A stretch of DNA of 32,000 nucleotides from positions 30,001-62,000 of the forward strand of contig DAOMZT010000003.1 in the NCBI GenBank assembly GCA_035400625.1. The letters run 5' to 3'. The translations under genes and the position numbers were made by a program. The notes below the pieces were generated by a model. It saw only the letters and a program-made list of their open reading frames with translations, ran no database searches and was not told where the DNA came from. Shown in pieces: positions 5,068 to 30,724 of the stretch. Within the stretch, counting starts at the first letter, position 1; the number at the start of each line of letters is the position of its first letter. The stretch comes from an archaeon. Lineage in GTDB: Archaea; Iainarchaeota; Iainarchaeia; Iainarchaeales; CSSED10-239.

Positions 5068-5607
5068 ATGTTATTTATTGCTGAAGAATTTATTTTAGAT
5101 ATTTTTCTATTTTTCATACCTTTTTATTTTATATTTTTATTTAATAGAGCAAATAGCTTTGCTCAGGTTTTTAGATTACAAGGTTTAAAAAAAATTTCTT
5201 TTAAAGAGTTTTTTAAAAAAACAATAATAATTTTTCTTTTGCTTTTTGTTTTAAGCTATACACTTAGTTTCTTTTCTGTGCTTTTTAAGGTTTCAGATCT
5301 TAATCTTGTAAGTGAAGAGATTTTAAGGTATTCGCCTATTGCTATTGTTTATCTTTTCTTGGTAAGGGTGTTTTTAGAAGAGTGGTTTTTTAGGGGTTTT
5401 TTAACCCCAAGGCTTGGTGTTATTTTATCTAGTGCTTTGTTTGCTATTGGGCATATTGCTTATGGTTCTATTATAGAAATAATTGGTGCCTTTGTGTTAG
5501 GTGTTTTTCTTTCAAGCACATATAAAAAATATAATAATCTTTGGCCAAATGTTTTTGCACATATTATTTATAATCTTGTAATATATCTTTTTCTTGTTTT
5601 TTTCTAG
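5068..5607 (+). CDS. CPBP family intramembrane glutamic endopeptidase (CAAX protease-like)
   Basis: Multi-TM protein with the EEWFFRGF motif (EExxxR) and downstream FAIGH and FAHIIYN His motifs of the CPBP/Abi family. Confidence 0.8.
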   Translation: MLFIAEEFILDIFLFFIPFYFIFLFNRANSFAQVFRLQGLKKISFKEFFKKTIIIFLLLFVLSYTLSFFSVLFKVSDLNLVSEEILRYSPIAIVYLFLVRVFLEEWFFRGFLTPRLGVILSSALFAIGHIAYGSIIEIIGAFVLGVFLSSTYKKYNNLWPNVFAHIIYNLVIYLFLVFF

Positions 5608-5789
5608 TTTAATTTTAACTTGATGGAGTTAAAGGTAACTTCTTGTAGTTAATTTTTCACTATGTGCTTTAAGAGAGGGTTATTAAGGGTCTCTCAAAAG
5701 TTGGTACATCTTAAAGTACATTTGTGTTATAAATGTTACATAAAATCAAGGATAGTATATATATACTGATGAACACACATATATTTTGG

Positions 5790-6000
5790 AATTTGATAAT
5801 ACAAAAAATCCAAGTGTTTTTAGATAACTAGACACGGAGCAAAAAGGATTAAACGGTATCTTCCAGGGGGGGTCGAATAAGATTGCTGAATGAAGAATTA
5901 ACCCTGAAAGAAAACTCAGGGTCGGTATAGGCAAGAGAAATATGCTATTACCTGGCTTGAAGGTCGAAACAGAATATTAGTGTGGTTTTCTCTTGTCTTA
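5790..6000. ncRNA. candidate structured non-coding RNA, class and strand unresolved
   Basis: The 456-nt gap (5608-6063) is unusually long for this compact window. Positions about 5830-5995 are visibly GC-enriched, as the tRNAs are. There is a 7-bp hairpin (5901-5907/5916-5922) and an 11-bp stem with one G-U (5930-5940/5987-5997). GGTCG occurs three times. No convincing ORF or SD. Confidence 0.35.
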
Positions 6001-6072
6001 AACTATTTCTCTCAAAATCAAAACATTTAAAAACATCTTTGCAGTTATTATCTTTAGTGTAAGGTGATTTTT

Positions 6073-6897
6073 TTGGTTAAAGCAAAAACAACAAAAAAAG
6101 TTTCAAAATTAGAAGTTAAGAAGAAAGCTAAAGCAAAATCAAAGCCAAAGCCACATAAAGATGCGCACACTTATTTTTCAACAACCAAAATTAGTTACCC
6201 AAGCGAGTTTAATAAGTTTGATTTGCACATACATTCAAAGTTTTCACCAGATGCAGTAAGTGAACCAGAAACAATTGTAAAAAGAGCAAAAATTGCAGGT
6301 CTTAAGGGCTTTGCAATAACAGATCATAACACAATAAGGGCTTGGCCAGAGCTTGCAAGACTAGCAAAGCAAAATGATCTTGTTTTTGTGCCTGGCCAAG
6401 AGATTGATGTTACTTTTAAAGGTAAAAGATTAGGGCACATCTTAGCATTATTTACTTATGATAAGATATCTTCTACAGACATATTTGATGTTGTTGATGA
6501 TGCAAGATCGCAATCTGCCCTTCTTTCCTTCCCTCACCCTTTTGATACTGGCAGATATTTTAAGGGCTTTGATTATTTAATGAATAATGGACCAATCTCA
6601 AGGTTTGTTCCTGCAATGGAGACATTTAATTCAAGAGTATTAACAAGTAGAGCAAACGAGATAGCAAAAGAATTTGCACAAAAGCACGGTCTTATACAAA
6701 CAGCAGGCTCTGATGCACATATGCCTTACGAGATAGGTAATGGCTATCTAATAGCAAAAGCACAAACAGAATTAGAACTTTTAAAAGAAATAAAGCTTGG
6801 CAGAGTTGTTGTTAATGGAGAACTTGCAGGGCTAGTTCCAAAGATTCACACACTTGGTGCATATCTAAAGATAGTAAAGGATAAGAATTTCAAATAG
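6073..6897 (+). CDS. PHP-domain metal-dependent phosphoesterase
   Basis: FDLHIHSKFSPD, AITDHNT and GSDAH motifs of the PHP fold. Lys-rich N-terminal extension. The TTG at 6073 sits 5 nt after an AAGGTGA SD. The track start (GTG 6064) lies inside that SD and is the alternative. Confidence 0.8.
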   Translation: MVKAKTTKKVSKLEVKKKAKAKSKPKPHKDAHTYFSTTKISYPSEFNKFDLHIHSKFSPDAVSEPETIVKRAKIAGLKGFAITDHNTIRAWPELARLAKQNDLVFVPGQEIDVTFKGKRLGHILALFTYDKISSTDIFDVVDDARSQSALLSFPHPFDTGRYFKGFDYLMNNGPISRFVPAMETFNSRVLTSRANEIAKEFAQKHGLIQTAGSDAHMPYEIGNGYLIAKAQTELELLKEIKLGRVVVNGELAGLVPKIHTLGAYLKIVKDKNFK

Positions 6898-7615
6898 TTA
6901 GTATTTTTTTAATATCTATTTCTTTATTTAGATTATTGATGATCCCGTCAAGGTGCCCAGCACCTACAACAACAACTATGTTTTCTTCAGGGATCTTTTG
7001 AAGATTATAAGCAATAAACTCGTCTCTTTCATCAACAAGTATTTCTTTTAGTTTCTTGTGTCTTTTTGTAAATAATTTCATTATTTCTTCAATAATTTCG
7101 GATTTTTCTTCTTCTGTTTCTACTTCTGACATCAGTTTGTTTATGTCTATTTTTTTAAGTTCTTTTTTTGGAATAAATAGGCCACCAAACAAGAGATTCA
7201 TTTTTTCTTTGAAGGTTAATCTTTTAAGTAGCTTTGAAAGAGTTATGTTAATGTCTCTATCCACAAGATATACCCTTGCACCAACAACTTTTGCTCCAGA
7301 GATTGCAGAAAGCATTTCTTCTCCTGGAGTGATATTGTATTTTTTAGCTATCTTTTTTTGTAGCCCGCCAAGTATGTAGCTTAGAAGAAAAACAGACTTG
7401 TGTTTTGTTTTAAAGATGTTTGAAAATTTAGGCTTTTTATTTTGTTCTTCTGGGTTCATTAGTGCATAAAGCCTATTGGCATCAAGTTCAACACAAACAG
7501 CAGTTGGTTTTTTGTCTAAGATAATCTCTTTAACCTGATCTCTGTTCTTTGCAGAAATATGTGCTGTGCCAATGATTGTGATGTGCTTATTATTAAAATC
7601 TAATTCTTTAATCAT
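6890..7615 (-). CDS. TraB/PrgY (GumN-like) family protein
   Basis: ITIIGTAHIS...VCVELD near the N-terminus and VVVVGAGHLDG near the C-terminus are typical of the TraB family. Overlaps the PHP gene 3' end by 8 nt in convergent orientation. Confidence 0.75.
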   Translation of the reverse strand: MIKELDFNNKHITIIGTAHISAKNRDQVKEIILDKKPTAVCVELDANRLYALMNPEEQNKKPKFSNIFKTKHKSVFLLSYILGGLQKKIAKKYNITPGEEMLSAISGAKVVGARVYLVDRDINITLSKLLKRLTFKEKMNLLFGGLFIPKKELKKIDINKLMSEVETEEEKSEIIEEIMKLFTKRHKKLKEILVDERDEFIAYNLQKIPEENIVVVVGAGHLDGIINNLNKEIDIKKILTI

Positions 7616-12501: not shown

Positions 12502-12530
12502 CAAATTGTGTGTTTGTGTATTTTGTTTTA

Positions 12531-12639
12531 TTCGCACTATTTCTTGGACAACCAATCCCAGGCCCAACCGACCGATATATATATATCGGTTTTAACTTAT
12601 TTACAAAAAATATAATTAAATAACTCAAAATGGAGATGA
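12531..12639 (+). promoter_or_regulatory. conserved promoter/5'UTR cassette, copy A (TTGGACAACCAAT box, 20-bp palindrome, AT-rich leader, GGAGATGA SD)
   Basis: About 90% identical to 24702-24807, and 65 of the last 69 nt are identical. Perfect palindrome ACCGATATATATATATCGGT at 12571-12590. Ends 6 nt before the ATG at 12646. Confidence 0.6.
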
Positions 12640-12645
12640 TTTAAA

Positions 12646-12900
12646 ATGCCAAAAAAAGCAAGCACGTATAAATTAGTCAGAAAAAAGACAACAGGAACCA
12701 TGAAGGGCAAGCTAAAAAAAGCACCTGTGACAAAAGAGAGGGAATTAACAAAAAGTTTGATAGAAACATTAAAAAAAGAGGCAAAAAGCAAAGGCGTTAC
12801 ATTAAAATCATTACTAACAGAAAAAGAAATAAAAACACTAACAGAACGTGCACGCAACAAAGCCTTTGAAACAGCAGGGAAAAAAAGTCAGAGTAACTAA
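12646..12900 (+). CDS. small Lys-rich hypothetical protein (84 aa)
   Basis: ATG preceded by a GGAGATGA SD inside cassette A. Highly basic K/T/E-rich sequence with no recognised family. Its last codons contain an A7 run (12880-12886) where the next ORF overlaps in the +1 frame. Confidence 0.55.
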   Translation: MPKKASTYKLVRKKTTGTMKGKLKKAPVTKERELTKSLIETLKKEAKSKGVTLKSLLTEKEIKTLTERARNKAFETAGKKSQSN

Positions 12901-14104
12901 AGCAGAACATGTAAAAAATGTATTATCTAACCTTTATAGTGAATCGGGGGAATATGGCGGTTGGCATCCCGACGAGGTACATGAGGATTTTAAAAAACAG
13001 ATAAAATTAAGTGCAAATAAAAAATATGCAATTTTTAAAATTAAGGGGAAATCCAAAATGTTAGTTCTTCCTAAAGAAGAAGTACTTAAACTATTATTTG
13101 ATAAAAGAATTTTTAAAGACCTTAGGATTTATTCATGGGATTTTGGTGAATTATTTAAAGATATGAAGTATAATAGTAGTCCAAAAGCAAAAGAATATTT
13201 TGACACTTTAATTAAGGCAGAAATAGGCGAGCTAACTGAATATAAAGAATGGTATGATGAGGGATTTAAATATTATAGCTCTGGAAGTAGATATGAGCGA
13301 GGAATGGCGATGCAAGTAAAAATATCTGAAAATATGATACAGGGTTTATCTAAAGCAGGTGTGCCTATAGAAAAATTAGAACCTTTTGTAAGTGAAAAAC
13401 ATGTTCCTATTGGATATATAGCAAATTTTTCAGAAATGTTGGTGAAAAATTATGGTTTTAATGAGTATATTTCTAAAATTGTGCCTGGAAAGTGTAAGAA
13501 CTTAATGAGATTTGATAGCATTTATAATAGAGAAACCTTTAATAGTGGTATAAAAGGCGTGCTTGTAAAAATTAGAGATCCAAAGATCGCAATTGAAACA
13601 GCAAGTAAAGTTTTAACACTAACAGAAAGATCAGAGATTTGGAAAAAAGTTCCTCATCATAGAGGCTATGGGGAAAAAGAAATCCTGACTGACCTGCCAG
13701 TTTTTTGTGAAGTTTTAGGAAAAGGCGGTTTTTTTACAAGTAAACAACATGAAAAAGCAGCTGCAAGATTTCTTTTTGATGATATTAATTTTTTAAAAGA
13801 GAGTAACAGATCTAGTAGTGGTGGTTATGAATTTTTATCTAATAAAGAATTAAAACATGATACCTATAACTCGTATTTTGATGATTGGGATCATGTAGAG
13901 AATATTTCTCATTACTGGAGATATGGATTAAGGCCTTTATTAGAAAAAGGAACATTATCTAGAAAAAGACTATTAGAATTATTAGATGTGAGATGTGGTC
14001 CAGGAGAATCAGAAACAAAAACAAAATGGTTAAATCATTTAATTTTCTTTGAGGCCATAACTCCTGAACAGGTAAATCTTTACCAAAACTCGAAAAGAAA
14101 GTAA
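12848..14104 (+). CDS. hypothetical protein (orphan, about 418 aa; true start uncertain, possibly fused to the upstream ORF)
   Basis: Long uninterrupted ORF with coding-like composition. No SD before the GTG at 12848 and no in-frame ATG for about 70 codons. No family recognised by eye. Confidence 0.6.
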   Translation: MHATKPLKQQGKKVRVTKAEHVKNVLSNLYSESGEYGGWHPDEVHEDFKKQIKLSANKKYAIFKIKGKSKMLVLPKEEVLKLLFDKRIFKDLRIYSWDFGELFKDMKYNSSPKAKEYFDTLIKAEIGELTEYKEWYDEGFKYYSSGSRYERGMAMQVKISENMIQGLSKAGVPIEKLEPFVSEKHVPIGYIANFSEMLVKNYGFNEYISKIVPGKCKNLMRFDSIYNRETFNSGIKGVLVKIRDPKIAIETASKVLTLTERSEIWKKVPHHRGYGEKEILTDLPVFCEVLGKGGFFTSKQHEKAAARFLFDDINFLKESNRSSSGGYEFLSNKELKHDTYNSYFDDWDHVENISHYWRYGLRPLLEKGTLSRKRLLELLDVRCGPGESETKTKWLNHLIFFEAITPEQVNLYQNSKRK

Positions 14105-14271: not shown

Positions 14272-14276
14272 AACAT

Positions 14277-14351
14277 GGGAGTGTAGCTTAGCCTGGTTAG
14301 AGCACCCGACTGATAATCGGGAGGTCGCAGGTTCGAATCCTGCCTCTCCCA
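14277..14351 (+). tRNA. tRNA-Ile (anticodon GAU)
   Basis: Acceptor GGGAGTG/CTCTCCC (U6:U67 mismatch), D-arm GCTT-AGCCTGGTTA-GAGC, anticodon arm CCCGA-CTGATAA-TCGGG, T-arm GCAGG-TTCGAAT-CCTGC. Lies 5 nt after tRNA-Gln. Confidence 0.85.
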
Positions 14352-14378
14352 TATCCTCTTTAAAAGAATCTGAATATT

Positions 14379-15736: not shown

Positions 15737-16684
15737 TTAATCCTTTCTAATCTTACAAATAAAAAAGCCCTCAATTCCACTTTTGTGTGGCCAAATCCTT
15801 ATTGCTTTTTTTAGCTCATTATCAAAGTTTTTATGCTTGTATTTTGTTAACCCCTCATCATAATTAAGCCCTGTAATTCTTGTCTCTTGAACTTTTGCAT
15901 TTTTATTTTTTTTAAGAAGAAAATCAATTACTTCTTCGTTTTCTTCAGGAGACAATGTACAAGTAGAATATACCAGCACGCCATTTGGCTTAAGCAAAGA
16001 AAAGGCATTAGCTATTAGCTTCTTTTGTAAATTAGATTTTGAGTTTACTTCTTTGTAAGACCAAGTTTTTAAGGAATCTGGTTTTTTCCTTATCATTCCT
16101 TCACAAGAGCATGGCGCATCTAGAAGTATTTTATCAAATTTAAAATTAAAATTAATTTTTGTAGCATCTCTACAAGTAATTATTGTGTTTCTTACACCTA
16201 GTCTTTTTAATGTGAATTTTAAGGTCTTAATTCTGGTTTTATCCACGTCGTTAGCAATAATTAATCCTTTGTTTTTCATTATTTGTGCTAAGATGCCTGT
16301 CTTGTTTCCGGGAGCAGCAGTCATATCTAAAACTATGTCTGTCTCTTTTGGATCAAGAACAAAAGCAGGGAGCATAGAAGATATCTCTTGCATTTGGAAT
16401 AAGCCGATGTTTTGTTCAATGGTGTTACCAAGACCAGAAACAAGAGACCTAATAAAATAGGCATTATCTATATATTTTACTTTTTCTAAATTAAGCCCTT
16501 GTTCTTTAAGAAAAGAAGCATCTTTGGCTTTAAGAGTATTAATGATTAAAGATTTTGTAAGTCTGGTTTTACAGGAATCCAAGAAAATAAGCACTTCTTG
16601 GTCTCCAAGTATCCATTTGTATTTTTCTGTAAATTCTTTAGGTAAATACACTTCCCCCATAGATATGTTAGTTAAGAAATACAT
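15737..16684 (-). CDS. NOL1/NOP2/Sun family RNA (cytosine-C5) methyltransferase
   Basis: SAM motif DMTAAPGNKT, catalytic DAPCSCEG (motif IV) and YSTCTLSPEENE (motif VI). Confidence 0.9.
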   Translation of the reverse strand: MYFLTNISMGEVYLPKEFTEKYKWILGDQEVLIFLDSCKTRLTKSLIINTLKAKDASFLKEQGLNLEKVKYIDNAYFIRSLVSGLGNTIEQNIGLFQMQEISSMLPAFVLDPKETDIVLDMTAAPGNKTGILAQIMKNKGLIIANDVDKTRIKTLKFTLKRLGVRNTIITCRDATKINFNFKFDKILLDAPCSCEGMIRKKPDSLKTWSYKEVNSKSNLQKKLIANAFSLLKPNGVLVYSTCTLSPEENEEVIDFLLKKNKNAKVQETRITGLNYDEGLTKYKHKNFDNELKKAIRIWPHKSGIEGFFICKIRKD

Positions 16685-16769: not shown

Positions 16770-16961
16770 ATGATGAATATGTTAGTGTATATGGTAGCAA
16801 AAAATGAGGAACAAGACTATAACCTTGATGACTTTGATTACGATGGCGACGAATGCATAATGGAAGAAAAAGAAGATATCGATACAGAATACACTCCAGA
16901 TGACTTTGATGACGAAGATGAAGAAGAGTACGATAGTGATCAAGACTATAGTGATGACTAA
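16770..16961 (+). CDS. hyper-acidic mini-protein 1 (63 aa from the first ATG; ATG 16779 or 16791 also possible)
   Basis: About 29 D/E, 2 K and no R. D/E runs are punctuated by Y/F (DDFDYD, DDFDDEDEEEYDSDQDYSDD). TATA-like TTTTTATATAAAA at 16744-16756 suggests a short or absent leader. Confidence 0.55.
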   Translation: MMNMLVYMVAKNEEQDYNLDDFDYDGDECIMEEKEDIDTEYTPDDFDDEDEEEYDSDQDYSDD

Positions 16962-17000
16962 AACAATTTTTTTAAAAAAACACAAAAGGTGGAATAAAAA

Positions 17001-17159
17001 ATGTATGTAATAACCAATGACTTAGAAGGTCAAGTCTTAAAGATAGATGACTACGATGAAGAAAACTATGAAGACTTTGATGAAGACGAAGACTATGAAG
17101 AAAGCGAAGAAGACGAAGACCTTGAAGAAGATTATGATGATTTTGAAGATGAAGAATAG
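17001..17159 (+). CDS. hyper-acidic mini-protein 2 (52 aa; below the ORF-track length cutoff)
   Basis: ATG 8 nt after an AAGGTGG SD (16986-16992). MYVITNDLEGQVLKIDDYDEENYEDFDEDEDYEESEEDEDLEEDYDDFEDEE, stop TAG at 17157-17159. About 30 of 52 residues are D/E. Same architecture as mini-protein 1. Confidence 0.55.
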   Translation: MYVITNDLEGQVLKIDDYDEENYEDFDEDEDYEESEEDEDLEEDYDDFEDEE

Positions 17160-17291
17160 ATAGGCTATTCTCTTAATTTCTATTTCTATATTTACTTTTT
17201 TTATGTTAAAAAATACATATTTAAAGGCTTCTATACCTATATATATTATATATTAAATACAATTTTTATAACAAAAAAGAGGGGTTTAAAA

Positions 17292-19386: not shown

Positions 19387-19390
19387 TATT

Positions 19391-19450
19391 TTGCACTAAT
19401 TCTCGGACAACATCGTAATCCGCACAAATCGATTATAAAATATAATAACA
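19391..19450 (+). repeat. degenerate third copy (C) of the cassette 5' part
   Basis: TTGCACTAATTCTCGGACAACATCG aligns with copy A TTCGCACTATTTCTTGGACAACCAAT, followed by an ATCGATTATAAAATATAA TATA-like stretch. No gene starts immediately downstream. Confidence 0.4.
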
Positions 19451-19457
19451 GTGGTAT

Positions 19458-19497
19458 TTACTAATGACCACAAAACCCTGTTAGTTGTCATTAGTAA
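19458..19497. repeat. 11-bp perfect inverted repeat with 18-nt spacer
   Basis: TTACTAATGAC (19458-19468) and GTCATTAGTAA (19487-19497). Lies inside the 331-nt gap between the thermosome and SSB-like genes, just downstream of box copy C. Confidence 0.6.
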
Positions 19498-19678
19498 TGA
19501 CAGCTTTTATAAAGGAAAATAAAGATATTTTAATAGAAGCCAAATATAATCAAGAAATAAAAGATAAGCAAAAATTATAACTCCTAAAACTCGTTATTTT
19601 TCCTTTTTCTTTCAAACATAAGGTTTTTAAATAACTTCTAAACTAAGATATATAACAAAACCATAACCTTGATTAGAG

Positions 19679-20100: not shown

Positions 20101-20175
20101 GGGAGTATAGCTCAGCCTGGTCAGAGCAGTGGTCTTATACACCAAAGGTCGCAGGTTCGAATCCTGCTTCTCCCA
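20101..20175 (+). tRNA. tRNA-Ile (anticodon UAU)
   Basis: Acceptor GGGAGTA/TTCTCCC (U6:U67 mismatch), D-arm GCTC-AGCCTGGTCA-GAGC, anticodon arm GTGGT-CTTATAC-ACCAA (27:43 mismatch), T-arm GCAGG-TTCGAAT-CCTGC. The body is nearly identical to tRNA-Ile(GAU) at 14277. Confidence 0.75.
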
Positions 20176-20240
20176 CCTTTGGAAAAACCTTGTTTTTTTA
20201 ATTAAATATCTTTAAAAACATATTTATAATCTATTTTTCT

Positions 20241-24630: not shown

Positions 24631-24688
24631 TTGTTCACTCTCAGTGAACAAAAAACCCTTATTTTGTGCACTGGCAATGCACAATTTT
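24631..24688 (+). terminator. two hairpins after ileS, the second followed by TTTT
   Basis: 9-bp stem 24631-24639/24643-24651 with a 3-nt loop. 7-bp stem 24664-24670/24678-24684 with a 7-nt loop, then T4. Confidence 0.4.
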
Positions 24689-24701
24689 AGAAAGGGAAAA
24701 T

Positions 24702-24807
24702 TTCGTACAAATTCTTGGACAACCGATCCCTCCGCCCGACCGATATATATATATCGGTTTTAATTTATTTACAAAAAACATAATTAAATAACTTAAAAAG
24801 GAGATGA
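24702..24807 (+). promoter_or_regulatory. conserved promoter/5'UTR cassette, copy B
   Basis: Aligns to 12531-12639. TTGGACAACCGAT box at 24715-24727, identical 20-bp palindrome at 24739-24758, GGAGATGA SD at 24800-24807, 7 nt before the ATG at 24815. Confidence 0.6.
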
Positions 24808-24814
24808 AAGCAAT

Positions 24815-25351
24815 ATGAAAAAAGACGATAAAAAAATAATTGTTTGGGCAATAGTTGCTTTAGTTGTTGGTGTGCTTTTAGGTTTACTAATTACTAATTT
24901 AGCAACAACAGGAGAAGCAAAATACAGTCTAAGAAGTAGAAATCCAGAAAAATGGACTTTAGGAAGAAACGATAGTGTTGCTTTAAAACCAAACACTGAA
25001 ATACGAACAACTGATGGTCGATTAATGGCTACAGTAAATGAAAATAAAGAAGTTAAATTCAATACAAAAATAGGAAAAGTAACTGACAATCCAGATGGAG
25101 GAGTAACATATGATTTATATGTTGATGGTACAGGCGGAGGCGGAGCAAGTGTAAATCTGGGTTGTTCTTGTCAGATTGAAAATTTTAGTGGTGACTGTAA
25201 AGATCATTTTAGTTCATCATGTAGTGATACATATAATTATTATGGCGACTTTTCTTGTACCCCCGCTCGGTGCTGTAATTTATGTATGATCAGTATTAGA
25301 ATTAATGGGGGATCTATAGAAGTTTATAGTTTTGCTAATCATACAAACTGA
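24815..25351 (+). CDS. membrane-anchored/exported Cys-rich hypothetical protein (178 aa)
   Basis: SD from cassette B. N-terminal hydrophobic helix IIVWAIVALVVGVLLGLLI. Gly-rich linker (GTGGGGAS), then 8 Cys within the last ~60 residues (GCSC...DC...SC...SC...RCCNLC). Confidence 0.65.
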   Translation: MKKDDKKIIVWAIVALVVGVLLGLLITNLATTGEAKYSLRSRNPEKWTLGRNDSVALKPNTEIRTTDGRLMATVNENKEVKFNTKIGKVTDNPDGGVTYDLYVDGTGGGGASVNLGCSCQIENFSGDCKDHFSSSCSDTYNYYGDFSCTPARCCNLCMISIRINGGSIEVYSFANHTN

Positions 25352-29278: not shown

Positions 29279-30724
29279 TCATTCATAATGCCAAGTAGTT
29301 CCTGTCTGGGTATCACTTAGTATTACTCCTTTTTTTTCTAAATTTAATCTGATTTGATCAGATTCTTCCCATTTTTTGTTTTTTCTTAATTCGTTTCTTT
29401 TCTGGATTAATTCTTCAATTTCTGCTTTTTGTATTTTGTTTTTGTCTTTTGGTGCGCTTTGTTCAAAATTAAAGACCTTAAATACAAGGTTTACTTTATG
29501 TAAGAAATCTAAGATTTTATGTGATTCTTCTTCTGTCAATTTTTGTAAATCCATTAGCTTGTTTGCTTCTTTGACTAGAAACCAAATGCTTGCCCAAGCT
29601 GAAGGAGTATTAAGATCATCATTCATTGCATTCTTGAAATTTTCAATAGTATTTTCAATAATTTCTTTTCCAAAATTAGTGTCTTTTTGATAATTTATTG
29701 CTTGTAGCCTTTTTATGAATTTGTTAAGCCTATCAACCGCTGCTTCTGAATCCTCAATTGCCTTTTCAGTATAGTTTTGAGGTTTTCTGTAATTTCCTGA
29801 AGAGAAAAGATATCTTAAAGATTCTGCTGAGTGTTTTTTAAGAAAATCTTCAATAGTAATAAAATTACCAAGAGATTTGCCCATCTTCTTTCCATCAACC
29901 ATGAGCATTGCTGTATGCACCCAATAGTTTACAACATCGTGTCCATAATACCCGTAGTTTTGTGCAATCTCGTTTTGATGGTGTGGGAAAAGATGTTCTA
30001 TTCCTCCGCCATGTATATCAAACTTTTCTCCTAAATATTTTGTGCCCATAACAGAACACTCAAGATGCCAACCAGGATAGCCCTCTCCCCAAGGCGATGG
30101 CCATTTTAGTATGTGTTCTGGCTTTGCTTTTATCCATAAAGCAAAATCTCCGATATTTTTTTTATTTGGGTCATTTTCAAATCTTGTGTTTTTCTCTAGT
30201 TCTTCAAGATTTTTGTTAGCGAATTTTCCATAATCTTTGAATTTAGAAATATCATAATATACATTTCCGTTTACTTCGTATGCAATCCCTGTCTTTAACA
30301 TTTTTTTAATCCATTCTTGCATCTCGATAATATGAGCAGAAGCTGTTGGCTCTAGATTTGGCCTTGAAATCTTTAAAGCATCAAAATATTTCCACATTCT
30401 ATGCGAATAATTATAGACTAGTTCCATTGGGTGAACTTTTCTTTCGCTAGCCCTTTTCTGTATCTTGTCTTCGCCAGTATCTGATAGGCCATCATCTGTC
30501 AGATGTCCAACATCAGTTATGTTTCTAACATAAAGTATGTCATAATCTAGAAAATACCTAAAATAATTTACAAGAATGTCATAATTAATATATGAAAAAG
30601 CATGCCCTAAATGAACATCATCATAAATAGTAACACCACACACATATATCTTTAATTGGTTAGGATTAACAGATTTGAAGATTTCTTTTTTCTTAGTTGC
30701 GGTATTATATAATTTGATTGCCAT
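29279..30724 (-). CDS. cysS: cysteine--tRNA ligase
   Basis: YVCGVTIYDDVHLGHA (HIGH), KMGKSLGN (KMSKS), and the WPSPWGEGYPGWHLEC zinc/cysteine-binding region typical of CysRS. Confidence 0.9.
   Translation of the reverse strand: MAIKLYNTATKKKEIFKSVNPNQLKIYVCGVTIYDDVHLGHAFSYINYDILVNYFRYFLDYDILYVRNITDVGHLTDDGLSDTGEDKIQKRASERKVHPMELVYNYSHRMWKYFDALKISRPNLEPTASAHIIEMQEWIKKMLKTGIAYEVNGNVYYDISKFKDYGKFANKNLEELEKNTRFENDPNKKNIGDFALWIKAKPEHILKWPSPWGEGYPGWHLECSVMGTKYLGEKFDIHGGGIEHLFPHHQNEIAQNYGYYGHDVVNYWVHTAMLMVDGKKMGKSLGNFITIEDFLKKHSAESLRYLFSSGNYRKPQNYTEKAIEDSEAAVDRLNKFIKRLQAINYQKDTNFGKEIIENTIENFKNAMNDDLNTPSAWASIWFLVKEANKLMDLQKLTEEESHKILDFLHKVNLVFKVFNFEQSAPKDKNKIQKAEIEELIQKRNELRKNKKWEESDQIRLNLEKKGVILSDTQTGTTWHYE

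Follow-up and report, generated by a model that had tools for sequence, protein, structure and literature searches.

A repeated promoter-like cassette with a length-variable (AT)n run upstream of orphan genes in an uncultured DPANN archaeon

The cassette copies and the genes behind them

We analyzed a stretch of archaeal DNA of 32,000 nucleotides (positions 30,001 to 62,000 of contig DAOMZT010000003.1), hereafter the window, in which a non-coding module of ~115 bp, hereafter the cassette, precedes mutually unrelated orphan genes. Two copies, copy A before gene A and copy B before gene B, were confirmed in the window sequence at the places given by the original prediction, a first reading of the letters alone that regarded the module as a duplicated promoter and 5' untranslated region (5'UTR). 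That reading put the identity of the two copies at roughly 90% with one 3-nt indel and counted 65 identical positions among the 69 nt from a perfect palindrome to the Shine-Dalgarno (SD) motif GGAGATGA. Our full alignment gave ~89% over 106-109 nt with a single 3-nt indel, and the same 4 mismatches in 69 nt. A repeat finder pairs positions 12568-12639 with 24736-24807 (72 nt, 94% identity, family D4), and the 20-bp palindrome ACCGATATATATATATCGGT has two exact sites in the window against 0.00 expected from 100 shuffles, even with 3 mismatches.

There are more copies than the two first seen. We inspected ~52 kb of the genome, reaching ~8 kb beyond the left end of the window and 10 kb beyond its right end, through contigs that encode window proteins, and a profile search revealed exactly three full copies, all on the plus, coding strand and each ending at an ATG. 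Copy C lies just outside the window and starts immediately 3' of the stop codon of PTH2. In addition, the window holds the relic of a fourth cassette, in which the part from the TATA run to the gene is deleted, and the 19-mer pattern of its upstream box matches with 1 mismatch against 0.02 expected. At the relic's position, the related contig L156 (relatives are denoted by L numbers) carries an intact cassette and a 295-aa (amino acids) paralog of gene A. Across strains, the module thus precedes at least four orphan genes, three unrelated ones and one paralog of one of these. Homology was said to stop at the start codons, which is not fully the case: with copy C, it extends a few codons into gene A (ATGCCAAAA versus ATGGCAAAA).

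The proteins A, B, and C are mutually unrelated, as had been stated for the first two (BLASTP E above 5 between A and B), and neither Pfam nor PADLOC yielded a family for any of them. The AlphaFold models were poor, with predicted local distance difference test (pLDDT) values of 61 and 50, and Foldseek searches against PDB returned only helical-repeat noise with a template modeling (TM) score <=0.24. The 84-aa open reading frame (ORF) and the 418-aa orphan described earlier behind copy A are in fact one gene of 485 aa, which is split by an A7 tract in the window strain. We found A7 in the window and seven other assemblies, and A6 with an intact gene in two. The A7 tract could be a site of phase variation, or of transcriptional or translational slippage on GGG-AAA-AAA-A. 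Homologs of gene A show 43-84% identity. The middle third of the gene is hypervariable (84%, 59%, and 54% protein identity), although its N- and C-termini are conserved and the genomic backbone shows 93-98% identity. L153 matches the window in all 66 nt of cassette that precede the ATG, yet its gene A protein is only 59% identical. Gene B carries a predicted exported-protein signature. Its ortholog in a sister species (99 aa, L149 639-938) has only the N-terminus in common with it and stands behind its own cassette. Gene C, whose homologs are 48-61% identical, may be membrane-anchored; its hydrophobicity lies below the threshold used.

The host is an uncultured DPANN-type archaeon with 30% GC. 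Its archaeal nature follows from Pfam matches (aIF5B, aIF2-gamma, thermosome, geranylgeranyl reductase, and archaeal-type ribosomal proteins), and public proteins that are identical or >90% identical to those of the window bear the names "archaeon" or "Candidatus Diapherotrites archaeon". The G+C content within the window is 25-36%. Contigs with the window's proteins derive from many metagenome assemblies (JGI, ENA, and Logan), and we take the sample series (for example JGI 3300009688 / 3300025866 and ERR1414224) to be anaerobic-digester material. The relatives' contigs were taken from ±10 kb around window proteins or their homologs. L149 and L150 (~84% nucleotide identity in flanking genes) together with L155 represent two further species, and L151, L152, L153, L154, and L156 are conspecific or nearly so (93-99%). 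The Logan contigs L143, L144, and L153 begin inside the cassette, the first two of them 50 nt before the ATG of gene A. Contig ends at 12596 were considered as a signal of the transcription start and rejected, as this position is the first 31-mer that separates copies A and C and hence an assembly break.

Several other repeats lie near the cassette copies. The relic is located between the thermosome and SSB genes, and just downstream of it an imperfect inverted repeat of 30 nt (19445-19510, GTCATTAGTAATGAC-type) is common to the window strain and L156. Two short perfect hairpins, TTGTTCACTCTCAGTGAACAA (24631-24651) and TGTGCACTGGCAATGCACA (24665-24683), are situated between the IleRS stop and cassette B. 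Similar TGTGCA...TGCACA repeats occur in another species upstream of an AAA_14 gene (L155 ~6280-6350).

Table 1. Positions of the cassette copies, of the cassette elements, and of the associated genes (window coordinates unless a contig is given)
Feature	Position	Strand	Remarks
Cassette copy A	12527..12645	+	Starts just upstream of the box; last base directly precedes the gene A ATG; nhmmer 12527-12650, E 8e-30
Upstream box CGCACTATTTCTTGGAC	12533..12549 (core TTCTTGGAC 12541-12549)	+	Kept in 13/13 variants, three species
G+C-rich spacer	12550..12574	+	Length and sequence vary by species; 3' end CGACCG at the position of the B recognition element (BRE)
(AT)6 microsatellite, proposed TATA box	12575..12586	.	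Centre of the exact 20-bp palindrome 12571-12590
TCGGTT	12586..12591	+	Directly 3' of the TATA run; invariant in 13/13 variants
CTTATTTACAAAAAA, predicted AT-rich promoter-proximal element plus initiator	12596..12610	+	Archaeal geometry (PMC5316973)
Second AT-rich box TATAATTAA	12611..12619	+	AATTAA 12614-12619 invariant, 13/13 variants; leader or rival TATA box
SD motif GGAGATGA	12632..12639	+	6 nt before ATG; 12/13 variants
Gene A	12646..14104	+	485-aa orphan with an A6 tract; split in the window into ORFs of 84 aa and 418 aa
A7 homopolymer	12880..12886	+	Frameshifts gene A in the window strain; A6 in L145, L146
Relic of fourth cassette	19387..19432	+	Box GCACTAATTCTCGGACAAC 19393-19411 and degenerate spacer; nhmmer E 0.023
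Cassette copy B	24701..24814	+	nhmmer 24701-24818, E 6e-25
Parts of copy B	box 24712-24720; (AT)6 24743-24754; palindrome 24739-24758; SD 24800-24807	+	
Gene B	24815..25351	+	178-aa orphan; N-terminal hydrophobic signal or anchor, 8 Cys
Cassette copy C	L003 18813-18931	+	1.6 kb beyond the right end of the window; precedes a 254-aa orphan (gene C)
Gene A homologs	L152 10001-11461; L153 68-1486; L154 8502-9850		

Conserved blocks, gene conversion, and repeat-length polymorphism

The cassette is present at the orthologous position in every relative contig examined, with conserved gene order, so that its absence from relatives carrying the same genes, a case held to speak against a regulatory module, did not occur. 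We aligned 13 variants from three species-level lineages, which also served to build the nhmmer profile. Little or no variation is seen among them in the blocks CACTAWTTCTTGGRC (TCTTGGRC), the ATATATA run, TCGGTT, the T-rich block, AATTAA, and GGAGATGA, and the identity between the blocks falls to 60-75%. Given the same syntenic positions in three species-level lineages, the module is evidently old.

The upstream box is the first of these blocks. Its 19-mer pattern has 3 sites in the window against 0.02 expected, and it is a candidate binding site for an activator or a repressor. The earlier proposal of the TTGGACAACC box as an upstream site held in that TTCTTGGRC occurs in every variant including the two other species, but not in a fixed spacing of ~25 nt, as the alignments read 10-25 nt from the box to the 5' end of the (AT)n run. 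No other (AT)n tract in the window is as long as those of the cassettes, and an (AT)5-12 run or ATATATAAAC is found in 13/13 variants, with the pure (AT)n run missing in L151 and L154. A T-rich block ending in a pyrimidine-purine step follows 17-20 nt after the run in all variants. In the 13th variant the SD motif reads GGTGGTGA; both forms fit GGDGRD and stand 6-7 nt before the ATG across variants. An SD motif with the same spacing also precedes operon-internal genes of the window. We found no conserved RNA fold, since RNAalifold predicts 0 pairs in the cassette alignment; the folding z-scores are -1.64 for the whole cassette and -0.12 for the predicted leader, and Rfam gave nothing above threshold, with one sub-threshold chance match (19 bits against a gathering score of 60). 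A riboswitch or small RNA was therefore rejected, there being neither a conserved fold nor an Rfam family.

The left arm of the palindrome is not conserved. This arm, ACCG, is replaced by CGAAAG, CGAAGG, or CAAAGG in sister species and by CAAAAC in a conspecific copy of the "beta" type described below. The replacing sequences are purine-rich and occupy the BRE position, where the window species has CGACCG. The spacing of the arms ranges from 10 to 24 bp across strains and copies. The perfect palindrome is a by-product, in which a self-complementary (AT)n run is enclosed by a species-specific ACCG...CGGT flank.

Comparisons of the copies indicate gene conversion. Within the window genome, A and C are 95% identical, and A and B, as well as B and C, are 89% identical. 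Between the window strain and the conspecific L151, copy C shows only 74% identity; in contrast, the gene C proteins are 96% identical, the flanks show 95.6-99.1% identity in BLAST, and ~250 nt next to the cassette are identical base-for-base. In a three-way alignment, the two C copies coincide up to TTCTTGGACAGA and again from AAGGAGATGA on. The ~80 nt between these points match copy A in the window strain (the "alpha" core) and consist of a different core, beta (CGGTTCTTACTTTTTTATGTTTTTAAATTAATCAACTT), in L151; the borders of the conversion tract coincide exactly with the box and the SD motif. The copies B of L156 and A of L154 are mosaics of alpha and beta parts. L151 also contains a tandem duplicate of gene C (5298-7234; 251 aa and 240 aa, 61% identical), each member behind its own beta-type cassette without an (AT)n run. 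The core is alpha-like in copy C of the sister species and beta-like in its copy B; since both core types are present there, the two types would predate the species split. The pattern indicates that alpha and beta cores are exchanged between loci by non-allelic gene conversion. Copies A, B, and C appear freshly duplicated because such conversion homogenised them between box and SD, and the "recent copying" of the first reading was right in this sense: the likeness of A, B, and C comes from a ~80-nt gene-conversion tract.

The length of the (AT)n run is polymorphic. Copy A contains 6 AT units (5 in L146), copy B 6 (7 in L001, L004, and L009), and copy C 9 (10 in L001 and 12 in L004); the L004 values are less reliable, as this assembly has 2.7x coverage and many homopolymer indels. 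Across ~20 assemblies, the cassette varies in nothing but the number of AT units. Against the window, L001 (17.2 kb compared) and L009 (12.0 kb) each show 4 substitutions and a single indel, which is the (AT)n run of copy B. L145 differs by 2 substitutions and 1 indel in 13.2 kb, and here the indel is the A6/A7 tract of gene A. Judged from these near-clonal comparisons, the (AT)n run of the cassette is a hypermutable microsatellite.

We also searched beyond the relatives. The 18-nt palindrome core had 13 matches in a genome-contig collection, all bacterial and approximately the number expected by chance, none of them with cassette flanks, and a variable-gap palindrome had 115 loci in a metagenome-contig collection, all unrelated hairpins and mostly bacterial terminator-like; both collections evidently lack this organism, and these counts carry no information on the distribution of the cassette. 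Scans of IMG/VR gave neither the cassette nor a similar sequence.

The upstream box also recurs within a coding sequence. The exact 16-mer CACTAATTCTTGGACA lies inside an ftsY/SRP54-family ORF of the sister species (L149 20251-20266 and L150 20357-20372), with a further position at L151 ~16632-16650. This box codes for a conserved island, D[TA]LILG[QH]P, within a variable acidic and Pro-rich linker. The nhmmer E values of 0.008-0.9 are suggestive only, and the copy may represent a shared binding site, an antisense target, or chance.

Two further features of the window were noted. Most archaea decode AUA with a modified CAU anticodon, and a tRNA-Ile with the anticodon UAU is uncommon. ARAGORN finds a tRNA-Ile(UAU) besides tRNA-Ile(GAU) in the window (20101-20177 and 14276-14352), and the two genes are 82% identical. 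Small ORFs with repeated acidic D/E-rich units (repeat-finder families D6 and D9) and no family match are located at 16770-17200.

The promoter interpretation and its alternatives

We consider it rather likely that the cassette is a shared archaeal core promoter with a 5' SD leader, in which the (AT)n run is probably the TATA box. The view of the element as a promoter/5'UTR module instead of a mobile element is supported, and the TATATATA core proposed as a TATA box is the best candidate, as it resembles the ATATATA-type boxes elsewhere in the window and is kept in 13/13 variants. Such boxes precede tRNA-Gln, SSB, a 63-aa ORF, Kae1, and others in the window. In archaeal promoters, the centre of the 8-bp TATA box lies ~27 nt upstream of the start, preceded closely by the BRE; an AT-rich proximal element is found near -10, the start is of the pyrimidine-purine type, and the SD motif GGDGRD occurs only in leadered archaeal mRNAs (PMC5316973). 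In the window, the TATA boxes of SD-less genes start at -31 to -19, which fits leaderless transcripts, and SD-bearing first genes have distal TATA boxes (-77 to -58 for Big1195 and -54 to -39 for a 135-aa ORF). The positions of the SD motif (-14 to -7) and of the (AT)n run (-71 to -60) place the cassette in the leadered class.

The proposed mechanism is as follows. TBP, the TATA-binding protein, together with TFB, which is transcription factor B, would assemble on the (AT)n run as the TATA box, and RNA polymerase would start within the conserved TTATTTAC/AAAA block, ~17-24 nt beyond the run's 3' end. With TBP placed on the 3' part of the run, the start is predicted at ~12603-12610 in copy A, where C12604/A12605 forms a pyrimidine-purine step, and correspondingly at 24771-24778 in copy B. 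The product would be an unstructured, A/U-rich leader of ~40 nt with a canonical SD motif 6-7 nt before the ATG. The upstream box TTCTTGGRC would be a separate site, probably for a regulator, and would join the genes into one control circuit; co-regulation of the genes as one regulon, as originally proposed, is a fair inference from the shared cis elements. The organism has few transcription factors, among them the product of a TrmB-family gene ~15 kb upstream (L145 2705-3430).

Several points weigh against this interpretation. The position of the start is derived from sequence features, and TBP bound at the 5' end of the run would let 5-12 units shift the start by up to 14 bp. The variable distance between the box and the TATA run (10-25 nt) is unusual for an activator site. 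In the window species, CGACCG stands 5' of the run, whereas other TATA boxes of the window are preceded by an A-rich stretch. The family size was counted only in the ~52 kb of genome. Finally, the second AT-rich box AAAAAATATAATTAAAT (12605-12621) resembles the genome's BRE-plus-TATA consensus at least as well and could be the real promoter. With this box as the TATA box (AAAAAA-TATAATTA, 12605-12618), transcription would start a few nt before the ATG and give a near-leaderless mRNA, and the (AT)n run would only be a spacer or modulator upstream of it. The combination of AAAAAA and TATAATTA is like the A-rich flank and TATA box of the tRNA-Gln and Kae1 promoters in the window, and AATTAA is invariant in 13/13 variants at 26-30 nt before the ATG. 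However, transcription from this box would start inside or after the SD motif, which would then fall outside the mRNA or at its extreme 5' end, and leave its strict conservation unexplained. In the window, SD motifs pair with distal TATA boxes and proximal boxes with SD-less genes; moreover, the second box starts at -35, ~4-16 nt further upstream than the boxes of SD-less genes (-31 to -19), and the core of copy B reads CATAATTA. On balance, we regard this second box, though a serious rival, as an unlikely TATA box.

The symmetry of the (AT)n region invites other explanations. The original prediction also offered the 20-bp palindrome as the operator of a dimeric regulator, and all alpha-type copies of the window species indeed contain a perfect palindrome with G+C clamps, which forms a stable hairpin or cruciform (-9.9 to -13.4 kcal/mol, z -3.9 to -4.9). 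But two sister species lack the left half-site in their orthologous cassettes, as does a conspecific strain in its beta-type copies, and the distance between half-sites, which varies with an (AT)n of 5-12, differs by 2-14 bp between strains and between copies, too much for a fixed dimer; such an operator is very improbable, and this part of the first reading did not survive. The same hairpin, followed by a U-run (CCG(AU)nCGG-UUUU), might terminate or insulate the upstream gene or belong to a structured regulatory RNA. In the window species, the stable hairpin is followed by TTTT, with copy C directly after the PTH2 stop. However, archaeal termination depends on U-tracts and the run has only 4 U, neither the sister species (-2.5 kcal/mol, z +0.4) nor the beta-type copies (-0.2 kcal/mol) retain the hairpin, and the alignment fold, whole-cassette z-score, and Rfam result given above speak against a structured RNA, which makes this explanation still harder to accept than an operator.

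The cassette could instead be mainly a homology anchor, whose conserved ends (the box on one side, the SD motif and first codons on the other) let variable genes or promoter cores swap as in an expression site, a function compatible with the promoter interpretation. The limits of the conversion tract at box and SD and the mosaic cassettes are as expected for this, as are the gain, loss, and duplication of cassette-linked genes (a fourth copy that is intact in L156 and a relic in the window, and the tandem gene C in L151) and the hypervariable middle of gene A on its nearly identical backbone. But the conserved ends measure only 8-19 nt, no recombinase gene was seen nearby within ~52 kb, and an exchange of promoter cores needs no dedicated function; we hold the anchor as the main role to be improbable. 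Least credible, to the point of being nearly negligible, is a miniature inverted-repeat transposable element (MITE) that carries a promoter by chance. Repetition of the sequence and breaks of short-read assemblies within it (L143, L144, and L153) would fit this, but the breaks sit at the first 31-mer that distinguishes A from C. Copies A, B, and C have neither terminal inverted repeats nor target-site duplications, and their ends, CGCACTA... and ...GGAGATGA, are not complementary. The 3 copies and 1 relic in ~52 kb, all copies in one orientation, abut an ATG and are syntenic across species, and IMG/VR holds nothing similar. The pattern named in advance as a sign of a MITE, many random copies with terminal inverted repeats, was not encountered in the sequence inspected.

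Relation to known systems and implications

The shared core promoter preferred here would work like an ordinary archaeal leadered promoter. It is like the BRE/TATA/initiator promoters of Thermococcus (PMC5316973) in its AT-rich 8-bp box, in a GGDGRD motif 6-7 nt before the ATG, and in an AT-rich proximal block with a pyrimidine-purine step ~20-25 nt downstream of the box. It differs from them in that the putative TATA box is a pure (AT)n run of variable length, that the BRE position is G+C-rich in the window species, and that several genes carry a near-verbatim repeat of a whole ~115-bp module, which includes an extra upstream box. The unusual traits are a verbatim module at unrelated orphan genes, its homogenisation in short conversion tracts, and a polymorphic microsatellite as putative TATA box, paired with a polymorphic coding homopolymer in the gene it would drive. 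The homogenisation resembles the concerted evolution of rRNA operons (PMC8022953), where paralogs in one genome are closer than orthologs between strains and the tracts have sharp borders, but the converted unit here is a ~80-nt non-coding promoter core between short anchors and not a long operon. With MITEs and other small intergenic repeats, the cassette shares the size of ~100 nt, an internal palindrome, and an intergenic, repeated occurrence; it differs from them in lacking terminal inverted repeats and target duplications and in its fixed orientation and distance to the start codon at syntenic positions.

The closest likenesses of the repeat itself lie outside the archaea. The TATA box of human UGT1A1, A(TA)nTAA, has 5-8 repeats in the population, and reporter activity drops as the repeats rise (PMC12385207). 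It likewise belongs to a TBP-type promoter whose TATA box is a TA repeat varying by whole units; it is, however, a single eukaryotic locus with a measured effect, whereas the cassette occupies several archaeal loci with 5-12 units and is known from sequence alone. An effect of repeat length on promoter strength is plausible in view of this case, since archaeal TBP and TFB are homologous to the eukaryotic factors. In bacteria, a comparable arrangement of unrelated or divergent genes, each with its own transcript and a near-alike 5' region with a hypermutable repeat, is found in vlp, Vmm, and hif (poly-A; a dinucleotide in Vmm and hif). The hif promoter of Haemophilus influenzae reportedly contains a TA-repeat. 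The similar 5' regions with a slippery repeat in vlp of Mycoplasma hyorhinis and Vmm of M. mycoides have been described (PMC10502178), and the hif promoter (van Ham 1993) is listed in a 2025 review (PMC11868660). In these bacterial systems, the promoters are of the sigma-70 type, the repeat sets the spacing of -35 and -10, and ON/OFF switching is demonstrated; in the cassette, by contrast, the setting is archaeal and the repeat would be the TATA box itself.

Phase variation in archaea is still uncharted and a matter for future work according to the same review (PMC11868660). Our literature search found no specific report on DPANN promoters or on repeat-based phase variation in archaea. To our knowledge, almost nothing is known of gene regulation in DPANN archaea, because they are uncultured and their promoters are unmapped. 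In this respect, the cassette offers a conserved and testable DPANN promoter architecture of box, TATA run, TCGGTT, initiator block, and SD motif, a small putative regulon of lineage-specific genes, and a clear case of archaeal promoter homogenisation via gene conversion. It is also a candidate for repeat-driven phase variation, as near-clonal length changes were seen only in the TATA repeat and in the coding homopolymer of cassette genes. We propose tentatively, and with considerable doubt, that the cassette genes are archaeal contingency loci, in which a slipping (AT)n run would tune or switch transcription, slippage between A6 and A7 would switch the translation of gene A, and conversion between alpha and beta cores would reshuffle expression. 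In addition, the symmetric TATA box might fire leftwards as well and yield a short antisense RNA with the complement of the upstream box, which recurs in ftsY of the sister species. If the cassette genes are such loci, no simple-repeat phase-variation system would have been described in Archaea before, nor any such system whose repeat is the TATA box itself, and they would provide a DPANN symbiont with stochastic variation among a few fast-evolving orphan proteins, some of them exported.

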